Assembly: GCA_010093995.1 (NCBI GenBank)
Contig: ML992507.1
Location: forward strand, 342,463 to 406,462
DNA: 64,000 nt
Source: Elsinoe ampelina
Taxonomy: Eukaryota
Reading direction: 5' to 3'
A program made the position numbers and the translations under genes. This document shows positions 1-24,479 of this stretch, one piece after another (position 1 is the stretch's first letter; each line of letters opens with the position of its first letter). The notes beneath the pieces were generated by a model. It had not been told where the DNA came from, ran no database searches, and saw only the letters and a list, made by a program, of their open reading frames with translations.

Positions 1-667
1 AGATCTAGAGGTATATTAATAGGACTATTATAAAGGGCCTTACCTTTAAGAAGACTAATAGACTATTAGTTAACACAATTAAGGCCTACTCTAACTTAGA
101 CTTTACTAGAGATAGATTAACTACAAGATCTATATCTAGTACTATTATTTATATGCTTAGTGTACTAGTCATTTAGAAGTTAAGGCTATAGAAGATTATT
201 ATGTTATTAAGCACTAAGGCTAAATACCTTGCCCTTACTAAGACCTATAGAGAGATTAATTAGTTAAGAAATCTTATTATTAAACTTAGGCTACTTACTA
301 ATATTTACCTTGGCCTAACTATAGTCTTTGTTAACAATAAGTTAGCTATTAAACTTATAAGAGATTATACTAATTTAAGGAGATCTAAGTATATTAATTT
401 AAGGAATTATTACTATAGAGAGTAGTATAAACTTAGAGCAATTAAGCTTAAGTACATTAATACAACTTAGTAATTAGCTAATATACTTATAAAGCCTAAG
501 TCTCCTAATAAGATCCTTAATTAATTAGTAAAGGCTAATTACTTAGTATATATCTATACTATACACTTATTTGGATTTTATATGTATTATTATTTTAAGT
601 ATATTATTTATGCTACTACTACTTATTAAGCTATCTTATTTGTCTAAAGCTTAAAGTAAATTGTTTT
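1..667 (+). mobile_element. Ty1/copia retrotransposon (RIP'd), end of RT plus RNase H and start of 3' region; begins before the window
   Basis: Degenerate RNase H motifs (YSNLDF~YSDSDF, LSTKAKY~STTEAEY, SKYINLRNYY~KHIDIRYH, LANILIKP~LADxLTKP). Near-identical to 63375-64000. Confidence 0.9.
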
Positions 668-694
668 CGTCACGAAATCTCTAAGCGTAGGGAG
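668..694 (+). repeat. Left TIR of giant element
   Basis: cgtcacgaaatctctaagcgtagggag; 22/27 identical to the reverse complement of 24446-24472. Confidence 0.85.
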
Positions 695-757
695 TTAGAA
701 TATTAGGTTTCCCCGCGTTAGACTAAGTTCAACTACGTTAGGTCGCTGTAAACGCAT

Positions 758-840
758 CCTACCCACCTGAATTCAGTTCAATGCACCCCTACCTACTTGA
801 ATTCAGTTTAACGTACTAAACCTACCTGAATTTAGTTAAA
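758..840 (+). repeat. Three ~30-bp subterminal tandem repeats with palindromic core CTGAATTCAG
   Basis: cctacccacctgaattcagttca / cctacctacttgaattcagttta / aaacctacctgaatttagttaa, spaced 30 nt apart. Confidence 0.75.
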
Positions 841-977
841 GGCGTTAGCGAGATTAAGCGTAGAAGCACTTTCGCGAGGGCATGAAAGTAGACATTTCCT
901 ACTTAGTTCTCTACCTTCCGACATAAGTAATAGACTAAACTAAAATGACCTTGTTTTATTATACTCTACTGTCTCTA

Positions 978-1560
978 CTCTACTACTAAGGGGCTCGGTG
1001 TTGTTAGCTATAAGTAGTTTCGTGCGACTATCTAGCTAGGGACTAAGCTTATTCGCAACGAGAAGTAGCTCTATATAGCTGTCGCCTATAAGTTCTGCTA
1101 CCTAGCAACTCGTATCGTTACTAGTGTAGAGGACCCTTACGGAGTAGTATTTCTAAGCTAGGGTCGTAAATGTAAAGTAGCGTTCCTAGAAAAGAAGTTT
1201 GTCGTAACAGCTAAGGCTAGGTATAAGATAGAGTACGTATACCTTTAGGTCTGTTCTAGCAGCCATTAGTCTATAGCGGTCACGTAGGAGAAGAACGACA
1301 ACGGAAGCTAGATATACTACGTTAACGGCGGCCGTAGTAGCGAGGTTAAGGCCTACTCTAAGAAGATCGACACTAATATAGACAGGTATAAGAGATGTAG
1401 TAGATATCTAGTTCAGGTTAAGCCGACTTCTTTTAGGTCGACTAACACCGACTAGTACACCTACTAGAAGACGCACTTTAGGGCCGCTAAAGAGCAGCTT
1501 AAGAAGCAAGGCCTAACAGATCTCGGTATACTCTCGGAGTAGCCTAGAAGGTAGTACTAG
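978..1560 (+). pseudogene. RIP'd cargo ORF remnant of unknown function (weak resemblance to Ulp1/C48-type H-W motif)
   Basis: One frame of ~190 codons in which all stops are TAG (RIP of CAG/TGG). Contains L*VCSSSH*SIAV. Confidence 0.4.
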
Positions 1561-2939
1561 GGACATCTACCCTCTATTAAGGGGAGCTGCCTTATCCTTA
1601 TACCGCCCCCTCGATTGCCTCGCTATACGATGTAGCTAGTAAGGAGGTAACTACTAATAACTATAGGCTCCTTCCCCTCCCTCTCCTTAATCTCCTCCTA
1701 GCTTAATACTAGCGTTAGCCCTCGCCTTGCCGGCCTATCCAGTGCTAGTTCCGGCAATCGGAGAAGTAAAGGAAGCGGCGCCCGGGTTAAGCTTACCGCC
1801 CTTAAATATAGTGCTATATATCGAAGACGAGGCCACCTCGAAGCGTACTAATCTCCCCGGCGTAACCCGCCGCGAGGTCGTACCTATAGTAGATAAGGCA
1901 GCAGTAGTAGCTTCCGCGGAGGACGTAGTAGTAGTAGCTTCGGCTACAGTGTACCTCCCTATAGTAGAGAGCGCGGATAAGAGTAGGGGGGAGGAGGGGA
2001 ATATCCCCTACGCGGAGGCGGGTATAACGACACTTTCTTTTACTATATCTCGCCGCTCTACTATAACTACTACTAAGTGGTAGTAGTAGTAGAGCTAGTA
2101 ATAGTACATATAAGGATAATCTAGTTTACAATCTTATAGATAGGATCTATTGCACATATTATGCACTAATAATCTTATAAGTAAATACTTACGATCTACG
2201 TAGATATAGAGAAGGCTTTAGAGGACAAGGAAGAGGCTACTTGCTATACTAACGAAGATAACGCCTAAGTTTTCTCTCCTTCTAGGCTTAAGCGGCTCTA
2301 TACCTGTGTCACGTAGCTACTTACAGTTATAGTTATATACTATGTTGTCCTCTACTCCCTAGAAGGCGTTAAGTAGGAACTCTCTAGCGTTGTTACTCTC
2401 TATAGGGGCAAGTCCTTCTTCGATAAGCTTCCCGTGGCTAGAATAGATATTAAAATTGATAAGTATCTTTCGGAGAGGGTCTTATAAGCTAGTCTCATCG
2501 GGGGACTTATAATAGAGAAGGAGTAAACCTCTTAGATCGCCGACCTAAGTCTGTCTACGAAACTAACCTAATAACTACTTATTTACCTATACTTTTCACC
2601 GCCGTTGCAAAATATATATAGGATACCTAAACTTCTTAAAGGCCAAGAGACATCTATAACGCCTCGCTATAATTTCCTAAGCTATCGTGATCGGTATAGG
2701 GGCAAACCGGCCCTTTAACAGGAGATTGTTATAAGGCGTCTTATGCCGCCTACTATATATAGTTCAGCGACTGACCTAATAACGTACAGGTGTAAACTAA
2801 CTAGCTAGAGTAATACCTACGGATGTTATCTTATCCTTTTTACCTAACATAGTTTAGTAGTCGACCTAAGCGTACCTAAGGCGAGGCGGTCGACGTAAGA
2901 GACGACTGTTCTAGCTACGGAAGGAGTGCTTAAGCTTCG

Positions 2940-5900
2940 TTAATGCCTCTTACGCTTGCTAACTGCGCCTAGGGATCTTAGCCTCTCTCGTTTAGAAGCC
3001 TTAGCTAGGTGGAGCTACTTAGACTCCTACGACTTATTCTATAGCATGTTATATGTGTTAAAGTCGGCTATGTTATTAATGTATATCCGGCTATTTAGCC
3101 TCGTCTTATCTACCGGTACGACGTAGATACTATAGTAGATTTGCAAAGTAGAGTAGACACGCCTACTAGCAAGTGCGTTCCGTCTAGCTCTATCGCGTCG
3201 ATTCGTCTAAGGCTTAATTAGTGTTATACTATACTCTCGATTAGCTACTCTATCCGGCCGAGTAGGCTAGTATAGATCTACTAGCGCTCCCGTGTAGTAT
3301 AGGCGTTAACGTCGACTCGATCTACTAGACTAGAAGCTATCCTCTATAGTTATTATAAATACAATTCGAGCTAGTAACTTACCTTAGAGGCTATCGGGTA
3401 ATGCTCCGACAGTGCCTTCGTTATTCGTTGTCTATTCTTACACCTAGAGCTAGTCTCGCCTCTTATTGCTATGTATCCCTTGCTATTTAGTTGTGCACCG
3501 GATAAAGTTTAGTTCGTCCGTATTAGGATTATTAGGATTATAGTTAGATAGCTTTCTACACTTTAAAGAACAGTAGAACTTAACGCAGAGGTCGCTAACC
3601 TAGGAAGAATCTAGTTCGAGTCTATCGGGATCTAGTTCGGCGTCGAACTAATTAGGGTATTCAGTTATTAAGCTAGAGCCTATATCGGCTATACCTTAAC
3701 GAGCCTCGCGGACAAACACCGCTATTACTTGCTGCAATAATAGCCTAGGTAGCATGTTAATAAGCGCCTCTAGTTCTCTAACTATACGCTATATAGCTCC
3801 CCCCTTAGTACTAGGCTAGCCGAACTAAGAAGTGACGTTAACTGTATCGCTTATACTAACCGGCGTACTCTAGATCTTAATTAGTTTAGTAGCCGATAGC
3901 CTAACTAACTTCGAGGGGTTATCGAATGCCGCTAATATGTTCGCTAGTTTAGTGTTATAAGTAGCAACCTAGTCTTCCTATCCGGCCTTCTTATTCGTAA
4001 GTTTAAAGGCGTCCTTAATAAAGCGGACATAGTTGTACTCTAAATGATTAGAATCGAGGCTAGTAACTACTCTAAAATTACAAATAGCCTTTAAAAAATG
4101 TGTTATTAAGTGCTATTTCGGAAAGTTAAAGTCACTCTCTTCTTTCCTATCGCTATAGTAGGCCTAGAAGGTCTCTTTATACTTGTTTATCCTAAAGAGC
4201 GCGAGGTTAATATACTAGAGTATGTCGTCGTCGTAGGTCTTATAGTTCGCTAGTAATATAAAGTCGACTAGTGCGCGTATAAATTTAATAGCTTAAGGCG
4301 CCTTAACCTCCTCGAGTAACGGCACGAATACTAGGAGCATCTAGCGCACGATACTCTTCTACTCTTAACCTGTCTATTACTTAACGGCCGAGTAGTATAG
4401 GAAGTGTCGAATGCCGGGAAACACTAGTATACTATCGAAGCGCTTGTCGATGATATTAAGCACAATCTCCTTTGCCGAGCGCTAGTAGCCTATTCGCTAC
4501 ATAGTCTCTCTAGCCCTTATATACCGCGGTGATTTGTGTGCAGGCATTAAATCCTAGAGCAATTTTCGAATCTAGCGTAGGACGTGCATTAAAACGCCTT
4601 TAAGAAGTTAGTACAGAATATCTAGCACTATCGCGTAGTAAATATTAGTACACGGAAGATCCTACGCAAAGCAACTAACCTTATAAACCTAAGAGCTCGT
4701 ATCTAGCTTTTCGCTCTACTACTAACTCTCGCGTGCCTCTCTCTATAAGCGCTATTGTCGCTACGTAGAGCGGTGAGTTCGGAACGGTATAGTGACTACT
4801 AGGTCCTCTCTCTCGTCTTTACCGATAAGGTAGCTTATATAATAATACAGTAACTTTACACCTATTATAGTAACCTATTCGGCGTAATTCGTAGGCATAG
4901 CAGCGAGTATAGGGAAGCACCTCCGCCTCTTTCTATCCGTATAGGAGATTGTTTCGCCCTCTCTCGAGTAGCAATTGACGACGGGGTTAAAGATTTTCTT
5001 TATGCAAGCGTAGTAGGTCTTCTCCTTAACGACATTCCTACTGTCTTTAATAATAGAAAGTAAGCCGATTAGTAACTACTCCGGCCGGTTATTGCTATTA
5101 CGTGCTTCTGCCTTTAGGTTGCCTAATAATAGATAGACGGCATGTGCTATAAGATCCCCTTAATGGTTTATTACCTAGGTCTAATTACTCGCGACGATTA
5201 ATGGGATAATAGTAGCTCTAGCTATCCTAAGTCGCTCTTATACGTCCTACTACTAGTCGCCGCTTGCTATTTCGGTGTATACTCGTCGTAGTAGCTTACT
5301 CTCGACAGCTTCTATAAAGACTCTATACGGGCTGTAGTCTATGTCTACTACGAAGCTACGATAACCGAGCAAGAAGCGTATCGCTAGGAGGATATCTAGA
5401 TGCCGAAACGTATGTCTTTTAGGCCTATAATTAGTATTCAGTGTAAAGCTCGAGGTCTGCTAGCCGTTAATGCCTCTAGCTGCATCTAAGTTTTCTATCT
5501 TCTCTACTAGTTTATTCGTAGTTCGCTAACTAAGGCTCTCTACTAGAGGTTATATACGTAGGTCTTTAAGTAATCGCGTGATTACGGCTTTACTAAGTTT
5601 TTCCTTAACAAGCCACTAGGTAAGACCGGCGTCTATACTATTAATAAAGGCTTCCTTTAGTTAAGTATCGCCTGACTAATTATGATTTAGTTCATTATAT
5701 GTGTCGATGTACATGTTATACACTTAAGGAGATCTAGACAACGTTAGTCGACGTAGACTAAGTATAAACTATATCTATTACTAACTCTTCGCTACTGGCC
5801 GGTATACTAGTAACCGTCTCGAACGTGATACGATCGGATATAGCCCTACTAGACGAGGACAATCTCCTAGCACTCCGCCCTATAGATGTACTACTAGTTA

Positions 5901-6480
5901 TGCTCGCTGTAATTACTTACTCTTTCTCGTGCGTACCTTCCCTTATAACCTCTTCTATGCCCTCCTCTTCCTCGTACGCGATGTGGCCGAGCCTACCGCT
6001 ACTATTGCTGTCTACTCTACGTGCTAGGGGATAATAGTCGAGGTCGGTAAAGAGACCGAGGGGATCGTCCGCTGTAGTATGCTATATAGTAGGCAAAGAG
6101 GGGAGGACACTCTACGCTAACTATAGACTATCGTCTCTACCTCGTTATTTAGTTCGGTTCTTAGTCCTTGTAGTTGGCGGCGGAGTTAAGTGGACTACTA
6201 GGTTATTTAGCGTCGGCGGATTATGCTAACTATTGCTGCTAATGCTACCTCGTTAGTCTTTATTAGATAGTAAGCGCTCTCCCCTATTAGAGAAGAGGGG
6301 GTTATTACTAGCGTCGTCTTCGCGGAGATATCTGTTAGTACGTTAATCTAGTAAGACTTGCGCCTTGTTGCTTATTAGTAGCTCTCTCCTCTAGCAATAC
6401 GGTAGATGTTAGACAAGGCCTCTACTAGATTGTATAATCTTTCCGCAGGCCGAGCATTTAGTAATACGCTTTAGTATGTT
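2940..6480 (-). pseudogene. Plavaka-family transposase (RIP'd), with N-terminal C2H2-like zinc finger
   Basis: Minus-strand translation in order: KCSACGKIIQSSRGLV*HLPYC; RVYTEIASGD***DV*; ATIIPLIVASN*T; AHAVYLLLGNL; RRCFPILAAMPTNYAE*; DILY*LLKGV; IDKRFDSILVFPGIRHF..**TG*E*K; FNFPK*HLITHF; FIRCTTK*; YINNIADFNTYN. These match the Plavaka motif series (TGDWWW, SDKT, CADGxxRRCFPILAAYIADYPEQ, PDxLHQLxKG, QWTGxE, FNxPKxH). Confidence 0.88.
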
Positions 6481-6686
6481 AGTTCTTATCGCTTAATATT
6501 TGCATTTATGGTTAGAATTAGTGCTTCGGATTTGTAACGACAGTAGGAAGTAAGACGTTTAGGCGCTACATTATGTTAGTTCACCTAAAAGATAGTTTAA
6601 CATACACTAGCACCTAAATCGGTCTACTAAACTAAGGAATCATATTCTCAGGTGATATAGTTAGGCTATTTATCTAGTAATATCAA

Positions 6687-9600
6687 TTATTTCTCTAGAT
6701 TAACCGCATCCTTCTTCGCTATAGCTCGCACGCGTGCCTATATCTCGGCCCTCTACTTCTCTATTTCTTCGTAGATAACTTTCTACACTATCAACGGCCT
6801 ACCCTATCTACTATTAAGCCACTCCTAAGGCCTATAGAATAGGGCTGTCGGCTTTATTATAAACGCCTCCGTGTAGTTAGCCTTCTAAGACTTAATATTC
6901 CTACAGACCTAGGCGAGATACTAGAGGACTAATCGTAGCACCGACGCTATATTAAGCAAGATTATAGTGTCGAAGCGGTTGAGGTTTAGACTAGTCTTAA
7001 TCGCCCTACCCTAAGCAATTAGGATCCTTAAACCTTCTAGCCTCGGGGGCTTAATAAACATGTCGTTAGATATAGCTACGTCGACGATGTCTATATAGGA
7101 AGGTATAGGTGTTATTCTATAGTAGATAACAACTACATTAGAATCCTTATCGATCCCGATTGCTTTACCGTCTAGGTACTACTCGAGCTATTTTAGATAC
7201 TGTGCCCTTGTTAGTAATGACCTAATTAGACTAAATAGTCTAAACTAACCGTCGTAGCGACTGCTAGCACTAAAGGTGTAAACGTATAGACGATTACTTG
7301 CCTCTTTAACTACTTCGAGTAGGAGACATTCTACTTAATAATCTCGGAAATAACACTATAAAGGACTTACATCTAAGGACTAGCGTGAATCTTGTCTATG
7401 TGCTACTATAACGCTGTCGCCGAGGAGTCACGTATAATATTATAGGCGTACTTAACAGTGTAGTCGCTAAACTCCTCTTTAACCGTAGGGCTATTCTAGA
7501 AGATATCTATAAGAGCGAGGAATATAGAGAAAAGCAGCAGCGGCGCGACTAGGCTTAGCATTTACTCCTTAGTCTTCTTGTTAAGAATCGTCTCTAATGT
7601 AACTTCGGACTTATTAGGTTTGTCCTTTTACTTCTCGATTGCCTCCTATATACTCTTATCTATATCCTTTTTGATCTTCTTCTATGTAGCTATAAGACTA
7701 TAAAGATACTTATTCTCGATAGTAATCTCTAGGTCGAATGTTAAATACGGTAGGACTCTAACTACTAGCAGACCGGGGGCAGTATCGAATAGTTTCTAGA
7801 CGTAGTCTACGTTTATCTTAATAAGAATTTCGGTGAGGATGCGGCCCTATTTAGTGACCGTTATAGAGATCTCTACTATAAACTCCGTACCCCCCTTTTT
7901 GTTAAACTTACTAGAGTTGTTATTCGCCTTATACTATTTGTCAATTACGTAGGTATAGTCCGATGCCTCTTAGAAGTTAAGCTTATTAGCGATAGCTCGT
8001 CGAGTAGCGTCTAGTCCTTTCTTTAGCCTTGCTTAAACTAGGTTGTCCTTAGACTTAGTTAGCTCCTAACTAGATTTATAGATGTAGGTGTTAATATATT
8101 GTCCTGTTCCTTTTCCATTTTTAAGCTTCTCTAACCTAAAGTCCTTATGTATAGTAGCCGTTAAGAACGCTACTACGTTTAAGCACTTAACAAATAGCGT
8201 TCCGCTTATGCCTAGTATAAAAGGCCTTCCTAGTAGCATTCCTAGACAGGACTAGGTCTACGTCTTCTAGCTAGTGACCTAGTGGAACTTATCGAAGATG
8301 ACGGCAGCCTAATAGATAGGGATAGCCCCCTTCTTCCTCTTAGCTCCCCTAGGAACAAAGTCCTAGTTATTAGTATCTACGTCGTCTTCGCCGAGGAAGT
8401 AGTTAATTATAGTGTTGCAAGTAGTAAAGAAGAACTAATTATTTATCTATGCTTTCTTAGGGTGCTTATTACGTATGTCGACGAGGTCTATAACTCTAAT
8501 AGTGTTAATAGGCTTACTAGTCTTTCGATCTTTTAGCTAAGTCTCCTATTTATAGTAGCCTTTAGGTAGATCCTCTTCGCGAACTAAAGAGTCTATGTTA
8601 TATACGTTGCTATACTCTATCTTTTGTACTTCTTTGTTTAAATTTCCCTAGTATAGGACGATCTTTGCCTTAGGCATAAACTTGCGTGTCTCTCGCGCCT
8701 ACTGTTTTATTACGTTTAATCCTCTAAGAATTAGATTATAGCTAATAGTATCGGTAGAACCAACGGTTAGCTATAGGTCGTCGACAAGTGTCGTTGCCTT
8801 CTAGTACTTACTCTATTGCTCCTCGGATATAGTAGCGTATCTACGATCCTTTAGCACCTCTTTATTTAAGAGTAAAAGGAGATAGAGCATAAAGAGGCCT
8901 ATCGGAGTCTTCCCGAATCCTATCTTATATGCGAACACAAATGCTAGGTAGCCTTCGAGGTACTTCTTAATTGCGACAAGCGCCGAGTACATCTATGCTA
9001 CCTCGACTAGATACTTCTTGTTCTAATACTAACAAAATACACTAGCGTTTAGTAAGTAAATGTCTTTCTTAAAGCCTATAAAGTCGTAGCCTCTTTCCTA
9101 GAACTCTTCGGACTAGTAATCGATTCTAGTACCTACGAGGATAAAGCTCTAGTAGGCTAGATCATTACTAGTTTGCTCGTCGTTATTGTCGTTAATAGTG
9201 TAAAGTTCGACGAAGTCCGAGCTACTAAGAGTCTCGTTGAACGTGCATTTTACTAGTGCTAGTATAGGTATAGATAGCTCCTTAGGGACTAGCGGAATGT
9301 AGTATCTAGCTAACTCTTTGCTTAGTATAACTATAAAGGGATATTTATCTATGTCTCGGCATTACTTGTAGTATTTGTCTTCTGTTACTCGAGTAGAGCG
9401 CTACTCGATAGTAGAATTATCGTCGGCTAGCAGTAGAGGGGTAATTCGCTTTTTAGGGGTAGAGTCACGTAGTGGTACGACCTTAGTCGGAGATAGAGGA
9501 GCTAGAGGATTATCTTCTTCTTTACCCTCGACTAGGGCTAATAGCTTCCAACTATTACAATACTAGAGGGGGTCGACTAAGTATATTAGTAAACACCCGA

Positions 9601-10665
9601 GTTAAACTAAGCGTTAAACTTATAAAGTACTTTAGTAGGAAGTTTCTTAACGAGATCCGTGCTAGGCGTAAGATAGAAGAAGATTAGGTTAGAACCTTCC
9701 GTTAGGGAGTTGACATAGTTAATAATAGCGGCACGTAGGTCGTAATTGTCGGTAATAGGGAGAATCTTATATAGCTCCGTATAGTCTATCTATACAAGTA
9801 TAATGTTATTGCTAATTAATTTTTTCTCCTTTAGAAATAGCCTAATTTCGTCGAGGCTATATGCATTTAGATCGTAAGTGTCCTTATCTCGTTGATAGTA
9901 CTATAGACTTAACGCCTATAGACGACGCAAACATTCTCTTTTTATAATCACGCCTAGACTAACGTCCGAATACTCGACGCTTATAAACTCGATAATAGTT
10001 TTGTCGATAATACTCTAAACTAGACGGGACGTGTCTTCTAGCATTTGCTACTAACGCATAGGCTAACTAGTGCGGCCATTAAGACCTATGCCCGCGAGTC
10101 CGCTACTAAGTATAGAAGTCTCTAATCTTTCGGAGAGTCCGCTATTAGACTAGGTAGCGGAGTGGCGCTTTCTAATCTACTTCTTAGGATATGCTCTCTC
10201 GTCTACTTCGGTCTAGTTCTTCTCGTTCCTAAGCTCTTACGCCTTAATGCTAAGGACGAAATCCTTGATAATATTACGGCCGGATATATCGTTTATAACG
10301 CTAACGTTCTTCTTAAACTAGTCTTAATCTTAACAGTTTAGTCTCCCGAAGAAGATCTTCGTATAGCCTTACTAAGGGTCCTATAGGTTGTTCTTAATAT
10401 TGATTATAATCGTAGCTATATTAGCGTTACTAGTCTAAGGTTCCTTGTAATCTAATTCGAAAGACGTGCAGGTATCCTTGTATAGTTCCTATGCCCTTAC
10501 GCATGCGGCGGTGTATATGTCGTCGTCCTAGTTAAAGAATTCGAGGAAGAATGCCTTAAGCTTAATGTTCTAATCGAGCTATACTTAAATATCTATAGGA
10601 GATCTCTCGTAGAGCGGAATTTCGCTTGTAGCCTAGCTAGCGCTATTAGGCTAATTCTTAGACAT
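6687..10665 (-). pseudogene. SNF2-family (SF2) helicase/ATPase, copy A (RIP'd)
   Basis: AYKIGFGKT (de-RIP AHEMGFGKT, motif I, ~8900-8935); VIFDKFH (DEFH, motif II, ~8285-8305); ILGISGTL (SGTP, motif III, ~8200); TSLNL..TIILL (GLNL, motif V, ~6960-6995); *YLA*VCR (motif VI). ATG at 10665; probable intron near 9580-9630. Confidence 0.8.
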
Positions 10666-11484
10666 ATTACGTGCGTTTGTAAGCTTAGTATGTGCTGTAA
10701 ATAAGGCTTTAAATAATGTCTAGTAAATAGATCGAGTAGGTGCGATAGATGTTAAGTAAGAGATCTCGTAAAGGTGTAGCGTATTTATAAGTTTAGAAGA
10801 ATTAAGGAGAGGATTTATTAACGTAGTAGGTCTATACACTTTGTGATATATGTCTAACTAAGACTTAACTAAAAGAAGAGATATCCTATTTAAGAGCACT
10901 TAAAATAGAGGTTAAAGAGGTTAAAGAAGTGCTAAAGAACTACATGAGTTACTTATTTATAGCTAAGAGAGAGTAAACAAAGATAAACGATAGCGATAAG
11001 TAAGAAGAGTAGTAACCTAAATTTAGTCGATTTAGGTCGGGCCCCGAACTAAGTACGTAGGTAGTATACTAGATGCGGCATATACGTGACAGTAGATAAC
11101 TTAGTTTAGACACTAAACTAATAGTAACTATAGTCCGTGCACTTAGTCACCTTTCGTTTTATATAATGTGTAAACTAAGGATGCTACTATCGTTATTAGG
11201 CACTTAACGTAAATAGATTAAACTGTATTTTGGCAGCGGAACTGAATTCGTATACGAGGCACAAATAGAATGTAATTAGATAGTATATAGCGGAATAAGG
11301 GACATAGTATAGCTTATAGACGCTAGCAAAGGAATAAAGAAAGTTATATACTACTATCTAATTGTCTAAACTTTACGATTGCTGTATATAGAGCTAAGGG
11401 GCAGAGTAGAGCAATAGCTATACATTCCGCGTAATAAGCAATTAATAGTACATTCCACAAAATTACACATGCGCTTTATTCCTC

Positions 11485-12420
11485 GCCTAGCCCCGCTATA
11501 GAGGCAACGGCGAAGGAGGACGCTATAGGTATAGCTCCGCCTAAGACGCCTTCTACTATAAGCTTATAGCTCGAAGGAGGTAGTAGGCGTACCCTTACCT
11601 ACGATATGCTTCTATATTTCCCCCTTTGTTACACCGGTTGTAACTCTACTATCCTGTCCTAAACATTCTTGTCTTATAAGGCGGGCACTCCCTAGTAGAC
11701 ACCTTCTCCTCTATCCTCTTCGTATACGCTAGAACCCCTAATAGCGTAGTCAGCAGCGTAGAAGGGCGCTCTACGATAGATTCGTTTAGTCGTAGCTACT
11801 AGGCGGAGACAGTATTAGATTCTACCGATACTACGCGGCTAGTATAGAGGATACTATAGAGGAAGGTAGAGACGGCGAAAAGGAGAGAGCTATCGAAATC
11901 TCCTACGTACGTAGAAGTCTATATCGGCGCGGTCGGCAAGACAGGGAGGTATATTAATATAGCTTTACTTAGGTATAACTACTAGGTGGAGACGTTGTTT
12001 AATCCTACTAATACTACGCTACCGGTGTAGAGGATACAGTAGGGGGCGGTAGTAACGTCGAGAGGGAAGAAGGTGTCGAGGTCTCCCTACGCACGCTTAG
12101 GTCTATAGCGGCGTAGTCGGTATAATAGAGAGGTACACTAGAACAGATTTGCTTAGGTGTAACTACAAGGTAGAGACGTTATTTAATCCTACTAACACTA
12201 CGCTACCGGTATAGAGGATACTAATAGAGGCGGCAGCGGCAGCGAGAGAGGAGTCGATATTTAAGTCGTTATTGTAGATACGACAACGGATAATTGTAGT
12301 GCACTAGGCGGGGGCGTCGCTATAATAGCTAGCCGGCTATTGTCGAGCTCGGATAGAGAGGAGAGCGAAGGTTACGCTAGTAACGCTAACGCCTACGTTT
12401 AGGTTAGTATAGGCGGAGGA
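11485..12420. repeat. ~0.95 kb segment (copy 1) containing three ~183-184 bp tandem units
   Basis: Unit marker gagac..taatcctact..actacg at 11806, 11989 and 12173. Direct copy at 18730-19680. Confidence 0.85.
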
Positions 12421-13069
12421 GGCGAACTAAGGCGTTATTACGAGTCATATCTATAATGAAACTATGTCGCTGCGTACACGGTGTACGACGCGTTTATAAT
12501 GCTATAGAGATTACTAGTCTCTAAACGAGAAGACACTTTAGAGAGGACTAAAACCGGACGGCATTACGTAAGTGTGCTTCGGTTTGCTTAGTCGCCCGTA
12601 GCCGAAATTTAGGTCATTCTTAAACTTCGAAAGAGCGGACTAACAACTTGTTAGTTCGACGTAATAAACTACTAGCCCTCCCTACTAGCCGACACTTACC
12701 GCCGCTAAATATAACAAGCTAGAGAGAGCAAAGCAACAATTAGCCCTACTAAATTCTAGCCGACTGAGATTCCTACTAGTAAGCTATGTTTTATAGTTGT
12801 TTAGACTACTACATGCTTCGCACGTACAATTTAAATACATCTTTAGCACCCTTAGGTAGCAGTATCGTAGTTAAAGCGCTATATATAGGGCTAGTAGTTC
12901 GCTACAAGTGTATCCTACTAGAAGTTCCTACACTACAACGACCCCCTCGAGTGCGATTCATGCGTTTAGTGGCTTGCTATTCATTAGACGTTGGAGCGTC
13001 GAACCGAGATTAAAGTACCTAGCTAAAAGCTACATCTTGTCGATTACTCGGGCCGGAGAATGTGTCTTA

Positions 13070-13560
13070 TACGTAGGAGACCTAGACAATGTTAGTCTAT
13101 GCAAACTGAGTATAAACTATCTATTACTAACTCTTCGCTACCGGCCGGTATACTAGTAGCTATCTCAAACGTAGTACGATCGGATATAGCCCTACTAGAC
13201 GAGGACAATCTCCTAGTACTCCGCCCTATAGATATACTGCTAGTTATACTCGCCGTGATTACTTGCTCTTTCTTGTGTATACCTTCCCTTATAACCTCTT
13301 CCGTGCCCTTCTCTTTCTCGTGCGCGACGTAGTTAAGCTTACCGCCACTATCGCTATCTACTCTACGTGCTAGAGGATAATAGTCAAGGTCGGTAAAGAG
13401 ACTAAGGGGATTATCTAGTGTGTTATACTATGTAGTAGGCGAAGGGGAGAGAACACCCCGCGCTAACTATAGACTATCGTCTCTACCTCGTTACTTAGTT
13501 TAATTCTTAGTCCTTGTAGTTCGTAGTAGAGCCGAACGGACTAAGTTATCGAATAGCGTC
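13070..13560 (-). repeat. Duplicated fragment of the Plavaka transposase 5' region (copy of ~5725-6215)
   Basis: Direct high-identity copy. ORF-track entries 5825-6034 and 13099-13332 give near-identical antisense peptides (RSDIALLDEDNLL). Confidence 0.9.
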
Positions 13561-14118
13561 GACGGATTATAGCTAAAATTGTGTCCTCGCTATAGTACTA
13601 GACCCGTTACGACAGGGTTTACTCTAGTGCATCTATACGATAGGGATTATTAACTAGCTTTCCGCTAATAACGATATTAGCTAATGTGTTTAATTAGCTA
13701 TTGTCGCGCTATTATACTTAGCCGAGACTATTATAGCAATTATAGAGCAGAAGTGCTACGTAGGCCCTATTATTCTAGCTAGTAAATAATTTATAGTTCT
13801 TACTATATTATGTCTCGACTTGTCGCCGGTAGTATATTAAGTCGGTTGTAAATAGCCTCTACTAACAGAGAGTAAAAGGGGTAGGTAAACCTGTTTCGGC
13901 CGCGTAACGTTAGGTAGTTTATGCCTTTTAGGGGTAGGCGATTAGTTCGCTAAACTAAAACTTCAAATTTTAGGTGAAAAGTAGTACTAGGTTTCCTGTA
14001 ACTATATTTAACAAGGGTGAACTAATAAAATAACCTTCGGTGATTCACTTTTTAGTTTAAACGACTATGCTTAGTTCGATTGTCTACTTTGCTATATTAT
14101 TATATATAATATTCTATA

Positions 14119-17100
14119 TTATTGTCGGTGTACCGTAGGTACTATTAAGCTACTTCTTCGACCGCGAGGATAGAGTAGTCGGTTTAAGCGTAAATACATC
14201 TTTCGTATCTACGTAGGCAGATGTTATATTCTCTACCGACTGTCGAAGGCCTAATAAATAGATCTATAAACCGAATCCCTATCGAGCAAGATTATAGTGT
14301 TAAGGCGGGAGCACTATTGCTCTATTTATATTACCGGACTAAGCGTAATCTAAAGTTGCGAACTAACTAGTGTAACCTCCTCGAAGTAAAATTAGTTAGA
14401 CATAGCTACTTCGATAATGTCTAGGCGTTTCTCTGTTAGCGTCTTTCTATAGTAGACTATAACGACTTTAGCGCCCTCGTCGATCCCGATTACTTAGCTT
14501 CTTAGGAGTCTCTCGAGGCATCCCTAATACTCTACTCTAGTTAGTAATAACCGAACTAGACTATATAGGTCGAACTAACTATCGTAGCTACTACTAGCAC
14601 TATAGTCGTACGTACATAGACGATGATTTGCTACTTTATAGTCTTTAACTCGCGGATGTTCTATTCTATAATCTTAGGAATAATGACACGAAGGACCTAT
14701 ATTCCTAAGCTAGTATAGTGCTAGCATACATGCTTGTTTATCGCTTCTACCCTAGGTACATTTCGAAGAGAGCCTATAGAGCAATTGTCGAAGTTCCCGA
14801 GCCCTTCTATAATGTTAGCGGATTATGTAGTTCCTTCTACACTAGCGGGGCGAATAGGTAAAGGAAGTAAGCTTATAACGACATCTAGCGTTTGCACTAC
14901 TAAATTCTTTTTACTCTCTAAACAGATTATATCCTCGGACTACTCTTTCTTGTGCTACGTCTCTATAACTATAGTTTATGTACTTGCTCTTATACGCGGA
15001 GCGATTCGTGTCTATAGTGCCACTAAAGAAATAAGATGTTCGTCCTCGATTAAAACTTTAGAGTTAGAGTTAGAAATATCTCGTACCTAATAAGCCTCGG
15101 AAGTAGGCGTAGCCGCTAGATGTTTCGCAATTAGGTTAAATTACATCGCGAGAGGAATGTTTAAAAGTCTAGCCACCTATATAGGGACCAAAGCGAAGAT
15201 TTCGAACTAGAAGTAGAAAGCGGCTATCCCGTTTACGAAAAGGGGGCCCCGATAGGCTCTAGCTATCCTTGTATCACTATCGCATATATAGAGAGCTGCC
15301 TCTCGTTATATTACACAGTAATCTCGAGTTAAATCGTGTCTAGTTTATCCTCTCTTATTTCCTCCGATAGGTACGTCTTCGCCGTCCGTAGCTAGAGGAC
15401 AGCTTCTACTATGTCGAAGCTGCCGTCGTTAACTAGCGGGCGTTTATATCTATTCCCTCGGGCTAATTAACCTTATACCGAATGTCAAGCTTAATACTAT
15501 TTCTACGTATACGGTTAGTAGAGCTATACTAATACCGAGTAGCGATTGCCTAACGGGGAGAGGCATAAGACAGTAGGGCGTTAGGGTGTTTCTCTAGAGG
15601 ACTTATTCGGCCTAATATAGAATGAATCTGTCCCTAGCTTAAGGCTAATTAAACTAAGTTAAGTTCGTAGTTAGTAGGGGAGGCGCGGCCTAACCTAAAG
15701 CGACTCTACTATTTGTTAGGAGGTGGTAGCTAGCACTAATAATAGTCGACAAGGACTCTGTACTATAATTGATTTCCAAGTATACTATGTGTAAATCTCG
15801 CTAGTACTCGAGAGTGTAAAATATTAATAACATCGGTAGTAACGCCTCGGCGCTCCTTAACGGCACTATACTATTGTTATTTAATTTAGTTAACGCTAAG
15901 TTTAGTATAGACTAAGTCTCGTACAATTGCTCCTAGTATTACTAGAGGAAGAGATCCTATTCTACTAACTTGTCCTACTTATTATTAAATGCCCTTATCT
16001 GTTAAAAGTACTATAACATTGCTCGGTCTCCCTTATCGATAATATAAAGGAGATAATCTCCTCCTCGATATCGATGTTATAGTAGTTAGTGCCCCGTAGT
16101 ATAATATTCTCGGATTTGCTCTCTCTACTCGCTTGTGTCGTAGCGTGCCTAACGGGATATAGGAAGTTACTAGTTCGGAAGTAGAAGCTAGGAGAGACAT
16201 TAGAGAGCTCCGAGAGATTATGTTCGTCTAGATCAATAGCCGACCACAGGTGTACGATAGCTTCTAAGGTATCCTTAAAGTTATAAAAGTAGTATAAGTA
16301 TAGGCGATGCCTTAGTAGCCGACGCTACGTTCTAAACTAGCTATGTTCTTATAGCGAGAAAGTAGGGACTGTATTCTCTTAAGCTATATAAACTATAACT
16401 CTATCCTAGACTAAGTTACTAGGTCGATTAAGATTTGTCGAACTGTAGTTAGAGGACTATTAAGCAAATTTACCTCCGATGACGACGATAGGGATATCGT
16501 AGGCTTTATAGGGGCCGTAGTCCCTTAGGGGCAGAATAAACTAAGAGAACTTTATTAGTTAAGAACTGAACTGTTTCGTAAATAATACAATAGCAAATGA
16601 AACATAACAATATTACTGCTCTTGCCTTTAGCGTTTTTGTCGCTATCGTGTGTATTATGCATCTAGTATCTCGATGTACTCTCTATGTTTCTCTCTATAC
16701 TAATCTCCTTTACGCTCTTTTTCCGTGCTAATGTCTGCGAAGCGAAGCTTCTTAGGAGTAGTAAGCACTTCCGAGTTCTCTTCTATACTAGTCTTAACAA
16801 TAGGAGATGCTTACTAACTACTACGATATTAATAAGAGTTGTCTATAAGTGTTAGTATATATAGACGAACAGTAAAGAGGTTAACTTACTTCGTATAAAG
16901 TTAGGAAGGTCTTTAATAGATACTGTAGAAGGGGTAAGATAGAGAAAGATCTCGTAGGTACTAGGGACGAGGGCTATAATATACTTAGTGATAGTAGCGT
17001 CTAGATCGAAAGAGTCTTTAATAGCGAAGACCTATATAGAGTTATATAGATCGATCTAGTAGAGGCGGAGGAAATTACCTTTAAGATTAAGGATCTGCCT

Positions 17101-17949
17101 AAGTATACTTATAAAGTACATAATGCAATAATTATTGTCCTTGCCGGGACTAGGCAACCTTAAGTCGTGGACGCGAATATTCTTTCTCGATGTTAGGTAC
17201 GAGACAGATTCCGTTTCGATGACCTCTATAATCTAGATTATAGTAAATTCGATATCGATCTAGATACGATTAGACGCTAACGCCTAGTTAAAGCTTAAGA
17301 CTCTATAATAAGGCTATGTATGTAAGTCTAATCTCCTGTCGCCTGTCTTTATATAAGCGGTACGTCTCTCCGAGGACGGTGTTCTTACTTTAGAGAGTAT
17401 TAGCATTTACGCGGACGAGGTAGCCGAAGGATGTAGACTCTAGGTGCCTCCTCCGCCTAGTAAGGTTATCCTTTCCCTTTTAAGCGACGGTGGAATACCT
17501 AACCTTATTAATTACATAACATTTCGGAGTAATCGCTATATAGCCTTTATCTCGTTAATACTACTTACAGTCCGCAAGTTCTCTATAAACTAGTCTAGAT
17601 CTTTCCGATCTAGTCGGTTAACAAAGAGCTTTATATCCTGTGCCGTACTACCTAGTAGGTTAGTCTTAACTTTAAGGCGTGCATTAAGTATATTCTTATC
17701 GCGTAAACCTCTCCTGTCTTGTTTCTCGATTTTAATACTATAATTAGTAAAGACTTTTAAGATTATTTCCTTTATCCTCGCGAACGCGGTCTAGTACTCC
17801 TAGTCGTCCTATTTAAAGAAGAATTAGAGAGATTTCTTACTAACATTGTTCTCTATAAGCGCATTCTTAACGATAGCTAGAGTAAGTTCGTTAAGCAGAA
17901 TCTTTTCTATAGGTCCGAGCGTATTAGTTAACTTCTTCGTTTTCGGCAT
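14119..17949 (-). pseudogene. Diverged SNF2-like paralogue, copy B (RIP'd, motifs degenerate, possibly split near 16610)
   Basis: Colinear homology with copy A at the N-terminus (FFFK*DD*EY*TA vs FFN*DDDIYTA) and in the helicase-C region (14482-14630 vs 7152-7300). Canonical intron GTAAGT..CTAAC..TAG at ~16845-16890. RPTVLCLSPLG replaces RPFILGMSGTP. Confidence 0.65.
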
Positions 17950-18729
17950 AGTGCTAATATGTATATTTAATGTTTGTAAGAATATCGACTAGTAGAGACG
18001 CCGTGTAGAATAGGTAAACTTAGAGAGGTCGAGATTATATAGCTAGGAGCTAAGGATAGTAAGGTGAGTGCTATAGAGCAATCGGCGGTGATAATACGTA
18101 CCTGTTATCCGATATAGATTTAAAATGCTAAGTGGAAAGTAAATAACAAGTTCTTTAATTAGGTAAAGGTTATGTCTAATGTGATATACCGAAGTAGATA
18201 GTTAAATTTGTAACTGAAAACTAGTTCGGGCCTCGACCTAAAGTGAACTAAGTTAATAGAGTCTATGTTTCGCATGTACTAATCGTGGCATATAATAGTA
18301 AGTAGTATTAGTTCGATGCTAGAACTAAAAGGAACTAAGTTAGTTCACGACTAACAAATCTTACGCGGCGTAAATTAGGTAAGCAAACAAAATGTATCTA
18401 ACTAAAGGTACGTAGTTAGCTGTGCCGAAGGCTTATATATCTCTCCCGTGTATGTTAGCGCTTTACGTAGAGTTATATATATCTAGAACATTTAGCAGAT
18501 ATATTAACAAAGAGTAGCATTGTGTAAAGCGACAATCTAAATGTCTTTATAGCGGACAACAGACAAAACGAACACTAAGGAACAAAGAGACGTATACTAT
18601 ACTTAGATACGGTAGATAAGGAGATTTTATTACTAGTTAGAGAAGGCGAATTAAAGTAATAAGCGTACAGTCCGCGTAGAAAGAAATACATTACTAACGC
18701 TAGAGAGTCACAACAATGCGCTATTAATA

Positions 18730-19680
18730 ACCTAGGCCCGCTATAAAGGCAACGGCGAAGGAGGACGTAGCTAGTATAGCTCCGCCTACGATGCCTTCTA
18801 CTGTAAGCTTATATCTAGTAGGAGGTAGTAGACGTAGCCTTACCTACGACGCGCCTCTATCCCTCCCCCTTTGTTACACTAGTTGTGACTCTACTAACCT
18901 CTCCTAAACATTCTCGTCTTATAAGGCAGGCAATCCCTAGTAGACGCCTCCTTCTCTATCCTCTTTGTATACGCTAGAACCCCTAATAGCGTAGTCGGTA
19001 GCGTAGGCGGACGCTCTATAATAGATTCGGTTAGTTGTAGCTACTAGGCAGAGACGGTATTAGATTTCACCGATACTACGCGGCCGGTATAGAGGATGCT
19101 ATAGAGGAAGGTAGAGACAGCGAAAGGGAGGGAGCTATTAAAATCTCCTACGTACGTAGAAGCCTATATCGGCGCAGTCGGCAAGATAGAGAGGTATATT
19201 AACATAGCTTTACTTAGGTATAACTACTAGGTAGAGACGGTGTTTAATCCTACTAACACTACGCTGTCAGTGTAGAGGATGCTATAGGGGGCAGTAGTAA
19301 CGTCGAGAGGGGAGGAGGTGTCGAGGTCTCCCTATATATACTTAGGCGCGCGGCGGCGTAGTCGGCATAATAGAGAGGTACACTACAACAGATTTGCTTA
19401 GGTGTAACTACTAGGAGGAGACGGTGTTTAATCCTACTAATACTACGCTACCAGTATAGAGGATACTAATAGAGGCAGTAGCGGCGGCGAGAGAAGAGTC
19501 GATATTAACGTCGCTATTATAGATACAACAATAGATGATTATAGTACACTAGGCAGAGGCGTCGCTTTAATAGATAGTTAGCTATTGTCGAGGTTAGATA
19601 GAGGGGAGAGCATAGGTTACGCTAGTAACGCTAACGTCTACAATTAGGTTAGTGTAGGTAGAGAGTACAAACTAAGGCGT
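18730..19680. repeat. ~0.95 kb segment (copy 2) with three ~183-184 bp tandem units
   Basis: Direct copy of 11485-12420 (offset ~7245). Unit markers at 19051, 19234 and 19418. Confidence 0.85.
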
Positions 19681-19974
19681 CATTGTGTATTGTATATGCG
19701 GTGTAGCTCTATCGCTGCGGATCGAGCATACGATATAAATGTAGGGAGATAGAGTTAGGTACGTCGAACTTTAAAATTTTGCGAGTTTTAGTTTAGGCTA
19801 ACTAATTATAACTAAGTAATACTTAGGCATGTGCCCCTTGCAAACTAAGACTTACGACTTCTAAGGCTAATCTATCTCGAGCGACACTCCTACCTAACTA
19901 CTAACTATACCGCTGCTTTCCTCTTCTCTCTTCGCTCTCCTCGGCTGCACTCGTATCTGCTTCTTATTAACTAG

Positions 19975-20790
19975 CGATATACTCGATCGAAGCTATTAAG
20001 CGAGCCCTCGCCCTCGACGACAAAGGCTATAGAGACTTATATAGTCTCTTAGAGGATATTATAGTAAGTAAAGGCATAGTTAGAAGAACATTTAGGTCGA
20101 TTTCTAATAGGAGAAGGCTAGAGAAGGAGGTGCTTCTAGCGGCACTAGATAGTAATAACATCCGATGTACGTTTCGGCATACGATAGAGCTATTAGAGAG
20201 CGGCGACGGTTAAGCTGCCTTCCGTGCTCTCGTCTACAAGATAAGTACGAACTTTAGACGTCGGCAGGTATAGTTACACTTAAGATTATATAAGCCTAGA
20301 GGGACATAGAACAATGCTAATACGCCTGCCTCGATTAAATCCTCGGATTGCTAATTGCAATTATAAGCGCCTTCGCTCTCTAATCGATTAAACGATATAC
20401 TGTTAGTAGTTCGTAAGGATAGAGAGATACGCTCTATCTGCTCGATTAGAGATCTCTTACTTACACGTCGCAAAGCTATAGCTAACGTGTCTAAAGAGGA
20501 CGTAGATATCGAGTTCGATTAGCTAAGAGTAATATCGATTATAACGGACCACTATATGTACAATAGGCAAAGCGATATAATAGGGTAGAAGGACGATAGA
20601 ACGCTACATTTCGCTACGATAGAGAATGCTATTTAGTTTAAGGCTATTATCTTGTCTAAGATATTACACAGTTCGCCCCTATATATCCTAATAAGGCGAC
20701 GAGATTAAGGGAAGCATCCGGCGGAGACAAGCATAAAGTATAATAGTCTAGTGGTAGACTAAGTCGAACTAAAACGTAGTAGGTAAGCCT
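19975..20790 (+). pseudogene. RIP'd cargo ORF remnant, ~270 codons, unknown function
   Basis: Long protein-like frame (IYSIEAIKRALALDDKGYRDLYSLLEDII...) broken only by RIP-type stops. Confidence 0.5.
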
Positions 20791-20899
20791 CGCTAAGCCG
20801 TACCTACTACTAAACCCCGAGGATTTAGTTCAACTAGCACGCTTTATCCTTCCTTACCTTCTAACTAGATCGACCTATAGAATTATTCGTACAAGCTAT

Positions 20900-21640
20900 C
20901 TTTCTATAATTAATTTATTCAGTCTAGTAGTATTCTTATACAAGGCTCCTAAGTATAGATATTAACTACACCGACCTTGTTTCTTTAGCAGCTAATATCT
21001 AGACTACAGAATTAAGCACGTAGGCTTCTCTTATTTGTTTAGGTGTAGAAGTATAGTCTTTCAACAGTTTGCCTAACTAGTCCGGGCCTTAGCTTAGAAG
21101 CTCTCTACTAGACACGTAAGGAGAAGAGTACAATTACGTTAGTAGCTAGTAAAAGTAACGTAGGACTCGGTGGCCTAAACAGCTCAATAGATAGTAACTC
21201 TTAGAGGAAGACATTACACTTATGTAGTAGGAGGTAGGCCGATTACGAATAATAACGGAGGAAAACGCTAGCGTAATTAGACAACTATAGCGAGAGAACT
21301 TTATACTTAGGGAGCACATTAGCAAAGCTTTTCGGGGGTTTAGCGTCGCCTCTACGGACCTTACTAGGGAGTTTAGGGGCTTATTTAGATTAGACAAGAG
21401 TATACGGCGCTATACTAACAGTGCTACTCTACTATTACTAAGTATAGTCACCGACAGCTAATTGACGCCCGCCCCTCGTAGCGACATAATTAGTAGACGA
21501 CAAGTATCTCCGTCTAGCGTACTCTATTCGGACACACCGGACTACAAGGTAGAGAGCAATTAGTACTTTTAATACTTAGAAGACGTTCTACTCGGCAAAG
21601 GGGGGGCTACTAGCGTAATTAGTAAGGGAGCCATAGTATG
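20900..21640 (+). pseudogene. RIP'd cargo ORF with basic region plus leucine-zipper/coiled coil (bZIP-like)
   Basis: YNYVSS**K*RRTRWPKQLNR**LLEEDITLM**EVGRLRIITEENASVIRQL*RENFILREHI at ~21120-21320. Confidence 0.45.
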
Positions 21641-22125
21641 AATCGTGCCACCTATCTACATATAGAAGGGCTAATACCTATAGTCTCTCGAATTAGTTTA
21701 TAATTACTTAGTATAGGTTTAATCTACGATTTCTCTCTGCGATATTCTACCCCTAGTATTGCTTAACGTAACTACGAATACCTTATTTAGTTTAAGTATT
21801 TAGTCTAAGTAAGTTCGAGCATCTTTCTTTTTTAGTTTAGGTTCTAATAATTGGCACGCCGCGAGTTAGAACTAGCTACAAGTTCAATTTAATACCCTTA
21901 CTAGTCACAATTTTCGTAGGGTATAGGCGGGTGTAACTAGATTTAATTAGAAGAAAGTCGCGTACTCTAAACACCAAACTAAGCCGTTATCTAACTTAAA
22001 CTAACACTAAGTTACTATAACTCGTATAAGACGACTATTCCCGTTATAGTATACATTGTTAGGGCCCGTCGTGCTAAACTCTCTTACACCTGTATACCTC
22101 TTAACTAGAACGATTAGGATAAGTA

Positions 22126-24472: not shown

Positions 24473-24479
24473 TTATTAT

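Follow-up and report, generated by a model that had tools for sequence, protein, structure and literature searches.

In this report, we describe a degraded gene in a 64,000-nucleotide stretch of Elsinoe ampelina DNA (NCBI GenBank assembly GCA_010093995.1, contig ML992507.1, positions 342,463 to 406,462 of the forward strand), hereafter the window, in whose own coordinates all positions are given. Sequence comparison supports the view that a locus on the minus strand (6690..10665) is what remains of an SNF2-like ATPase gene, with at least its N-terminal lobe recognizable. The span of the locus was set by stop density in each frame, by homology in its central part and by an ATG at 10665-10663, and its 3′ limit is approximate. 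About 1 kb downstream, on the same strand, lies the pseudogene of a Plavaka transposase. In the most likely of the readings weighed here, the SNF2-like gene is a now-dead accessory gene of a Plavaka element, located upstream of the transposase. We judge this reading to be evenly balanced between right and wrong; it would place both genes between one inferred pair of element ends.

The ATP-binding half of the SNF2-like gene

The translation of 9700-6689 on the minus strand, read through its stops (P0001; 1004 codons, 70 stops), was compared by phmmer with 1,835,955,588 library representatives and retrieved exactly two proteins at E ≤ 0.001. These are P0002 (E = 1.1e-7, P0001 residues 459-814) and P0003 (E = 2.3e-7, P0001 residues 217-826 against P0003 residues 150-733). 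In Smith-Waterman alignments of the three minus-strand frames with these relatives, frame F1 (codon starts 10999-3k) alone aligned, with z-scores of 17.9 and 20.4 (20 shuffles), against 0.5-2.4 for the two remaining frames, and frameshift-tolerant alignment agrees. By tblastn, residues 221-548 of P0002 fall on 8302-7259. The same frame carries the fewest stops of the six across the main exon (7250..9574, minus strand), with 41 stops in 775 codons (35 TAG, 6 TAA and 0 TGA) versus 47-99 in the other frames. This exon comprises a conserved N-terminal block, the N-lobe motifs I-III, an insert, and a strand resembling motif IV, and the stops that it holds are by themselves enough to make this copy nonfunctional.

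Motifs I-III are all read in F1 and in the correct order. Motif I (Walker A), AYKIGFGKT at 8906..8932, lies within the stretch aligned by phmmer, where P0003 and P0002 both have DMGLGKT. Motif II, IFDKFH at 8282..8299, aligns to IVDEFH of P0003 and yields DEFH once one G>A change is reversed, and motif III, ISGTLF at 8192..8209, aligns to LSGTPF of P0003 and yields SGTPF once one C>T change is reversed. Measured against Snf2-family signatures, the Walker A pattern GxGKT is present as GFGKT within 8932-8906, and the DExH of motif II and the (S/T)GTP of motif III appear as DKFH and SGTLF, each one transition away from consensus. An enlarged spacer between motifs III and IV is a further characteristic of the Snf2 family. 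Here approximately 300 codons separate motif III (8192) from the motif IV-like strand (7297), and P0002 and P0003 contain the same insert. The strand itself, VIVYTF at 7280..7297, is a putative beta-strand opening the C-lobe, and the alignments of both relatives stop there.

An earlier note on this DNA, made from the letters alone and giving no strand, had reported superfamily 2 (SF2)/SNF2 motifs in order, including motifs V and VI. The part concerning motifs I, II and III is borne out in F1 of the minus strand by relatives at E of about 1e-7, whereas motifs V and VI amount to a resemblance by eye in another frame; the plus strand shows no SNF2 motifs. The motif readings offered by that note after reversal of mutations (AHEMGFGKT, DEFH and SGTP) are separated from the observed letters of motifs I-III by C>T or G>A changes alone.

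Reversing transitions also brings the translation closer to its relatives over two longer blocks. Over the stretch from motif II to motif III, 17 of 47 residues are identical to P0003 and another 10 of 47 become so (27/47, 57%). In a family-specific block between motifs III and IV (7670..7831, minus strand), 14 of 54 residues are identical to P0002, with a further 15 of 54 after reversal (29/54, 54%). On these sequence comparisons, we take the N-terminal ATPase lobe, the conserved block before it and the family-specific insert of about 300 codons (9574-7250) to be real.

Exon-intron structure

Near 7250, the frame with the fewest stops changes from F1 to F0, and this change is accounted for by a canonical 50-nt intron (7200..7249, minus strand), which was recognized by sequence reading and falls between codons. 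It has GTTAGT at 7249-7244, TACTAAC at 7216-7210 and a CAG ending at 7200, and both the GTTAGT and TACTAAC signals are retained in the second copy of the region described below. The alignments of the two relatives stop at this boundary, that of P0002 at nt 7259 and that of P0003 at nt 7229. At the other end of the main exon, a weaker candidate intron of 47 nt (9577..9623, minus strand; ATAAGT..TACTAAT..TAG) would link an upstream low-stop frame, F2, to F1, its 5′ splice site being a GTAAGT mutated by one G>A change. Over the three exons there are 56 stops, of which 50 are TAG, 6 are TAA and none is TGA. The fewest-stop frame and the exactly fitting intron identify the SNF2-like locus as a real former multi-exon gene.

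The 5′ limit is uncertain. The span given in the earlier note reaches 10665, where an ATG exists (10665-10663), but the frame of this codon has more stops than another frame there. Across 10754-10060 this other frame has the fewer stops of the two, one plus-strand frame has fewer still, and low-stop frames run on to approximately 10754.

A remote SNF2 family of two known members

The two relatives connect the locus to the SNF2 ATPases. P0003 passes the Pfam SNF2-rel_dom profile with 47.8 bits (cut-off 24.9; E = 1.3e-12), and P0002 matches ResIII only, below the cut-off. They share 28% identity over 391 residues (BLASTP, E = 2e-41) and thus form one family, whose joint profile matches a profile of 15 phage SNF2 sequences with 96.8% probability over motifs II-III. 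When this joint profile was used to search the Protein Data Bank (PDB), 14 of 15 weak matches were SNF2-type enzymes, the best being 1z63 (E = 0.012); a phmmer search of PDB chains with P0003 alone gave none at E ≤ 1. Pfam places no chromo, bromo, HSA, RING or other known accessory domain in P0003.

The family is also small. Cluster look-up returns P0002 and P0003 as singletons, and word-index searches of 5.8e9 predicted proteins with P0003 and with the joint profile found no further member, only P0003 itself. Metagenome and viral scans with the joint profile recovered generic bacterial and phage SNF2 genes only, with tblastn alignments shorter than 50 residues in the sole matching metagenome or viral locus, and a search of the ESM Atlas with P0003 returned generic SNF2/ResIII clusters only. 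An AlphaFold prediction of P0003 from a two-row alignment was unusable (mean predicted local distance difference test score 29.4). That the only relatives detected are two singletons, far from every solved SNF2 enzyme (best PDB E = 0.012), speaks against recent capture of an ordinary remodeller from the host; the earlier note had suggested that the gene may be a core element gene and not a captured one. Like the solved Snf2 ATPases, including the Sulfolobus Rad54-like enzyme (1z63), Chd1, CHD1L and SNF2L2, the locus has motifs I-III in order and a wide separation of motif III from motif IV; unlike them, it is very remote in sequence, and its C-lobe is a candidate only.

The adjoining Plavaka transposase

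Downstream of the SNF2-like gene, a single frame (2976..5657, minus strand) with 57 stops in 894 codons carries a Plavaka transposase pseudogene. Read through its stops, 5657-2976 matches Pfam PF18759 with E = 7.8e-42 and 144.1 bits against a cut-off of 26.3, covering profile positions 4-322 of 325. All five transposase homologues found bear this domain (best E = 2e-129, 40% identity), and the nearest named relative comes from Polychaeton citri. By tblastn, residues 8-908 of P0011 align to 5657-2976 in an unbroken frame. The assignment of the transposase to Plavaka in the earlier note is thus confirmed, as is its statement that the SNF2-like gene lies upstream of the transposase and in the same orientation.

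Between the two genes, stop profiles reveal a spacer with a low-stop frame (5760..6495, minus strand, F2), which opens with a Cys/His zinc-finger-like segment and continues into an acidic region. Judged from these sequence features, it may belong to the transposase as an upstream exon, or represent a small third gene; no homologue was found.

A block of repeat-induced point mutation

Both pseudogenes lie in an AT-rich block (1..26000, no strand assigned) defined by its dinucleotide ratios and GC profile, whose GC content is 0.31-0.48. In all 13 of its 2-kb bins, TpA/ApT is 1.67-2.20 and (CpA+TpG)/(ApC+GpT) is 0.35-0.45, compared with 0.42-0.77 and 1.07-1.44 in the 14 bins of the comparison stretch 26001-54000, which carries ordinary fungal genes (coatomer beta, RIC1, a GH3 glycosidase and an NB-ARC/TPR NLR-like gene). 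The excess of TpA, the deficit of CpA and TpG, and stops of the TAG/TAA type, derivable from CAG, CAA or TGG, are those of repeats altered by repeat-induced point mutation (RIP). Together with the neighbouring ordinary fungal genes, this signature indicates a filamentous fungus and places the SNF2-like locus within a block of repeats degraded by RIP. The RIP load of the SNF2-like gene is comparable to that of the neighbouring transposase, and a dead copy of this kind has no present function in this genome. Pfam searches of all six frames of 1-4500 and 19700-26100 found no family.

Several features of the wider window were recorded as well. Positions 1-626 recur at 63375-64000 as a direct repeat with 97% identity, so another repeat family frames the window. 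A 142-bp match (95.8%) between 26113-26254 and 59333-59474 joins the inner edges of both repeat regions, and further AT-rich blocks of the RIP type lie beyond the gene island at 54001-58000 and 59001-64000. The NLR-like gene, a 1288-codon open frame on the minus strand at 46874-50737 with PNP_UDP, NB-ARC and TPR domains, lies in the gene-rich stretch that borders the repeat block. Two runs of N (gaps or withheld letters) at 60949-61312 and 61909-62734 explain the very low GC content and the apparent reading frames open in all six frames near 60949-62734.

The candidate C-terminal lobe

Beyond the intron, the last exon (6690..7199, minus strand, F0; 11 stops, all TAG, in 170 codons) is a candidate C-lobe by motif resemblance only. 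Once transitions are reversed, F0 resembles SNF2 motifs V and VI by eye: it reads YLDGK at 7164..7178, SLNLN at 6978..6992 (motif V-like, and the source of the 'GLNL' of the earlier note), TIILLN at 6951..6968 and QYLAQVCRN at 6897..6923 (motif VI-like), all on the minus strand. F0 has 11 stops here, compared with 19-20 in the other minus-strand frames but 10-11 in two plus-strand frames, and a different frame of 7300-6900 is also legible by eye as motifs V and VI.

Profile and alignment searches gave this exon no support. A phmmer search of the PDB with the C-lobe reads of the two repeat copies (A and B, below) produced no SNF2 enzyme, only chance matches to BST2 and isopropylmalate dehydrogenase. 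With hhalign, alignments of A and B in two candidate C-lobe frames matched the 15-sequence phage SNF2 profile with probabilities of 0.4% and 0.05%, and when two bacterial SNF2 C-lobes were aligned with A and B in a RIP-aware manner, z was ≤ 3.0 and the frames disagreed. A RIP-aware profile scan of the six frames of 1-26000 found neither lobe, and since it also missed the verified N-lobe, it lacks power. The relatives offer no guide to this part: the alignments and proteins of P0002 and P0003 stop before the C-lobe, P0002 being 553 codons on a 2514-base contig hardly longer than the gene. From the sequence features of the last exon, we consider the presence of a C-lobe likely but unproven.

Repeat units, copies and element ends

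The earlier note treated one copy of the region, 6687..10665; the window contains two or more copies of the SNF2 unit. Unit A (5685..12509, minus strand) comprises the spacer, the SNF2-like gene and an array of 183-bp repeats, and is collinear with unit B (13034..19754, minus strand), a tandem second copy found by self-BLAST that is more decayed and has no transposase. The two units are 83-86% identical in both flanks, and a single stretch of the gene matches between them (7065-7308, 70%); in a collapsed purine/pyrimidine alphabet, parts of the gene reach 77-80% identity. At the protein level, A was compared with B in nine pieces of 150 codons, and a strong match came from one only (7513-7064, z = 24). 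No match of unit B to P0002 or P0003 was obtained, frameshift-tolerant alignment included.

Upstream of the SNF2-like gene, self-BLAST reveals about five diverged 183-bp direct repeats (11716..12591, no strand assigned), and BLAST in the collapsed alphabet aligns 11716-12412 with 11899-12591 at 81.9%. Unit B likewise has about five diverged 183-bp repeats upstream (18961-19728). Tandem Repeats Finder did not detect the 183-bp array. From their arrangement, these arrays may be subterminal, transposase-binding repeats.

Of the transition differences left between A and B in their well-aligned flanks (5685-6229 and 11396-12509), the largest class falls at CpG: 49 C>T changes precede a G and 52 G>A changes follow a C, compared with 22 and 33 in CpA/TpG contexts. 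Either the CpA sites are saturated, or CpG-directed deamination acted too.

Further evidence on copies comes from short contigs of the source sample, assembled from two runs (X1 and X2) and placed over 2500-20500. There are 1434 contigs from X1 and 943 from X2, of which about half are just 95-99% alike to the window. In X1 their differences are predominantly transitions of the RIP type (48 C>T and 53 G>A, versus 12 A>G, 12 T>C and 1 A>T), and the SNF2-like gene accounts for 14 of the 40 variant sites listed. Because unit B (70-86%) is too diverged to supply variants at 95-99%, these contigs hint at further near-identical copies elsewhere, with both genes covered by variants. Summed contig depth, which is not a copy number, is 840-2100 over the SNF2-like gene and 2150-5190 over the transposase, compared with 160-260 for single perfect contigs. 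X1 and X2 each include one contig in which A-like sequence up to 6607 continues, after 10 other letters, as B-like sequence from 13941; it could represent a third, hybrid copy or an artefact of repeat collapse.

Plavaka elements are described with the termini TGT..ACA or CATCA..TGATG and target-site duplications of 2-3 bp (PMC12730594, in the parts of that work available to us). A search for such termini with 2-3 bp duplications around both genes found none. By boundary alignment, the A/B homology fades at approximately 12497-12530 and 19742-19780, and no recognizable terminus occurs there. The 3′ flank of unit B compared with 1-3100 and 19700-26100 stays at null level, the 183-bp repeat compared with the left flank, inverted copies included, gives z ≤ 4.3 (not significant), and BLAST in the collapsed alphabet was too noisy to be used for element ends.

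Accessory gene, separate repeat or host gene

Several of our results weigh against assigning the SNF2-like gene to the Plavaka element, or against its identification as a complete SNF2 enzyme. As regards the element, searches turned up neither terminal inverted repeats nor target-site duplications nor an empty site, and the claim of the earlier note that the gene lies inside the transposon thus finds no support at its ends; the proposal that it is a core gene of the element is likewise unsupported, the second SNF2 unit, B, having no transposase. The homology of unit B ends at 13034, corresponding to 5685 in A, where the transposase starts, and this makes the SNF2 repeat unit and the transposase separable. 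Given the higher contig depth over the transposase, the two genes may at times move separately. Codon positions 1, 2 and 3 have similar numbers of A/B transversions (70, 62 and 63; p = 0.75, from a poor alignment), and the lack of bias gives no sign of protein constraint on both copies. As regards the enzyme, the C-terminal helicase lobe, which a working SNF2 enzyme needs, could not be confirmed from the sequence, and Pfam gave no match on the candidate C-lobe reads. For P0001, Pfam returned two weak irrelevant matches and no SNF2, and the window's own translations fall below the SNF2-rel_dom gathering cut-off.

The Pfam shortfall extends to the other searches made with the window's own letters. 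All six frames of the window gave no SNF2, Helicase_C or other family at E ≤ 1 over the SNF2 region, four further reads of units A and B (stops read through as X or as Q/Q/W) gave none at E ≤ 10, and a phmmer search of the PDB with P0001 matched no chain. RIP damage is the likely reason for the failure of the window's translation in the SNF2-rel_dom test, and this failure does not decide the matter. The profile check against SNF2-rel and Helicase_C that the earlier note had proposed thus has a divided outcome, with no match for the window's own translations and a clear SNF2-rel_dom match (E = 1.3e-12) for the relative P0003.

The strongest competing explanation, which we hold to be unlikely yet worth serious attention, is that the SNF2-like gene is part of a separate tandem repeat (5685-12509, with its own 183-bp repeats) that abuts a 5′-truncated Plavaka transposase, the nesting of the two being accidental. 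It would account for the meeting of the repeat unit boundary (5685 in A, 13034 in B) with the start of transposase homology at 5657, as well as for the missing transposase of unit B and the unequal contig depth of transposase and SNF2 unit, and it suits a 26-kb block of RIP-mutated repeat DNA in which other parts match no family. It has to contend, however, with two genes that are close together, on the same strand and in the order usual in two-gene EnSpm-like elements. Moreover, searches of every frame of 1-26100, which RIP blunts, turned up for the unit no transposase besides the Plavaka one, no reverse transcriptase and nothing else that confers mobility, and a transposase cut exactly at its start codon would itself be a coincidence.

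A second explanation, which we regard as improbable, sees in the locus an ordinary lineage-restricted host gene, locally duplicated or situated beside repeats, which was never mobile and suffered RIP as collateral damage. RIP mutates any duplicated segment and also leaks into adjoining unique DNA, so the tandem duplication of A and B would alone have been enough to trigger it, and the introns of the SNF2-like gene are like those of host genes. Introns also occur in fungal transposon genes, though, and contigs that are 95-99% variants extend across the gene, for which unit B (70-86%) is too diverged to be the source. A host gene would further have to be reconciled with the absence of orthologues among 5.8e9 predicted proteins in the word-index searches and with the remoteness of the family from all solved SNF2 subfamilies.

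The idea that there was never a gene, and that AT-rich, low-complexity DNA altered by RIP produced the motifs by chance, can be given next to no credence: Pfam and the PDB are blank for the window's own translations and two frames of 7300-6900 are both readable by eye as motifs V and VI, but alignments of 350-610 residues with E of about 1e-7 in a search of 1.84e9 proteins, z of 18-20 confined to one frame, 54-57% identity to the relatives in two blocks after reversing transitions, and an intron that fits exactly rule chance out for 9574-7250 and leave it as a caution for the C-lobe.

If the SNF2-like gene was indeed an accessory gene of the Plavaka element, the following course of events can be envisaged. 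A very divergent SNF2-like ATPase, a motor of the double-strand-DNA translocase type encoded by a multi-exon gene, would have been carried within the 5′ portion of a cut-and-paste transposon of the Plavaka (EnSpm/CACTA-related) type, on the same strand as the transposase. The intact ATPase would have moved along DNA at the expense of ATP, loosening chromatin or proteins at the element ends or targets, and the loosened chromatin may have given the transposase better access or countered heterochromatin silencing, similar to the role proposed for TET/JBP enzymes in other Plavaka elements. RIP would then have killed both the gene and the transposase. This mechanism draws on the general behaviour of Snf2-family enzymes, and a role in transposition or anti-silencing is, by that analogy, pure inference.

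Comparison with known systems

One close parallel is with fungal Plavaka elements that carry a TET/JBP dioxygenase gene (PlavakaB, in Agaricales), for which a role in escape from silencing has been proposed (PMC12730594, from the sections available to us, as in the rest of this paragraph). The present locus resembles them in having a PF18759 transposase of the cut-and-paste type and a second gene acting on DNA or chromatin. Unlike in those elements, the gene beside the transposase here encodes an SNF2-like ATPase and not a dioxygenase, and the host is an apparently RIP-proficient ascomycete, whereas the TET-carrying Plavaka families belong to Agaricales (PMC12730594). A word search of one supplementary file of that work yielded no SNF2, helicase or ATPase, and its main text uses 'helicase' once, for Helitron (PMC12730594).

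Giant Plavaka elements of red algae contain accessory genes named PAG1-3, and the accessory domains, which modify chromatin or DNA, comprise a methylase with SET and a ParB-like domain with a 2-oxoglutarate oxygenase (bioRxiv 10.1101/2025.02.11.637652, from the portions of the preprint available to us). As in those elements, a Plavaka transposase is accompanied here by a co-oriented, putative accessory gene, and tandem repeats lie beside it; unlike the present locus, the red-algal elements are intact and defined by their termini, belong to another kingdom and include no SNF2 domain among their accessory domains as given in the preprint (bioRxiv 10.1101/2025.02.11.637652). The single use of 'SNF2' in the preprint text concerns host transcription-associated proteins, and its supplements, outside this search, may list other accessory genes.

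Helicase-encoding DNA transposons are also known from fungi, namely AcademH, KolobokH and Helitron (as cited in PMC10799480, in the passages available to us). In these elements, as at the present locus, a nucleoside triphosphatase gene of superfamily 1 or 2 lies beside or is fused to the transposase, but theirs are of the DEAD/Helicase_C or Pif1 type and accompany other transposase superfamilies, in contrast to the combination of SNF2-like gene and Plavaka seen here (PMC10799480). The locus lacks the Academ or Kolobok transposase with a DEAD/Helicase_C helicase that characterizes AcademH and KolobokH, and the similar layout is an analogy only.

Within that part of the literature covered by our search of titles, abstract openings and text passages, no Plavaka or EnSpm-like element with an SNF2 gene is described. 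In JBP2 of kinetoplastids, a host TET/JBP hydroxylase is fused to a SWI2/SNF2 ATPase. JBP2 thus couples base modification with an SNF2 motor, the two kinds of accessory function encountered near Plavaka transposases, and is itself a host fusion protein.

Implications

Plavaka elements with accessory genes of an epigenetic type are known; new here, on the condition that both genes belonged to one element, would be an SNF2-type gene in that capacity. What the analysis yields in any event is a well-supported gene wreck with an exact gene model. Genes of the P0002/P0003 type are missed by standard annotation because they sit in masked, RIP-mutated repeats, and the family would gain a transposon home if the reading is true. 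We entertain more tentatively, as possible rather than probable, the wider proposition that some ascomycete Plavaka elements carry their own, otherwise unknown lineage of SNF2-type motors as a standing chromatin-opening or anti-silencing gene, comparable to the TET/JBP dioxygenases in basidiomycete Plavaka and the PAG genes in red algae, that the recruitment of epigenetic functions is a general habit of these elements, and that the P0002/P0003 family is transposon-borne throughout. Few eukaryotic DNA transposons carry genes other than the transposase, and among those that do, VANDAL, the TET/JBP-bearing elements and the red-algal Plavaka illustrate anti-silencing. If the accessory-gene reading is true, an SNF2 motor would represent a new weapon against silencing, one that acts by ATP-driven remodelling and not by base modification.

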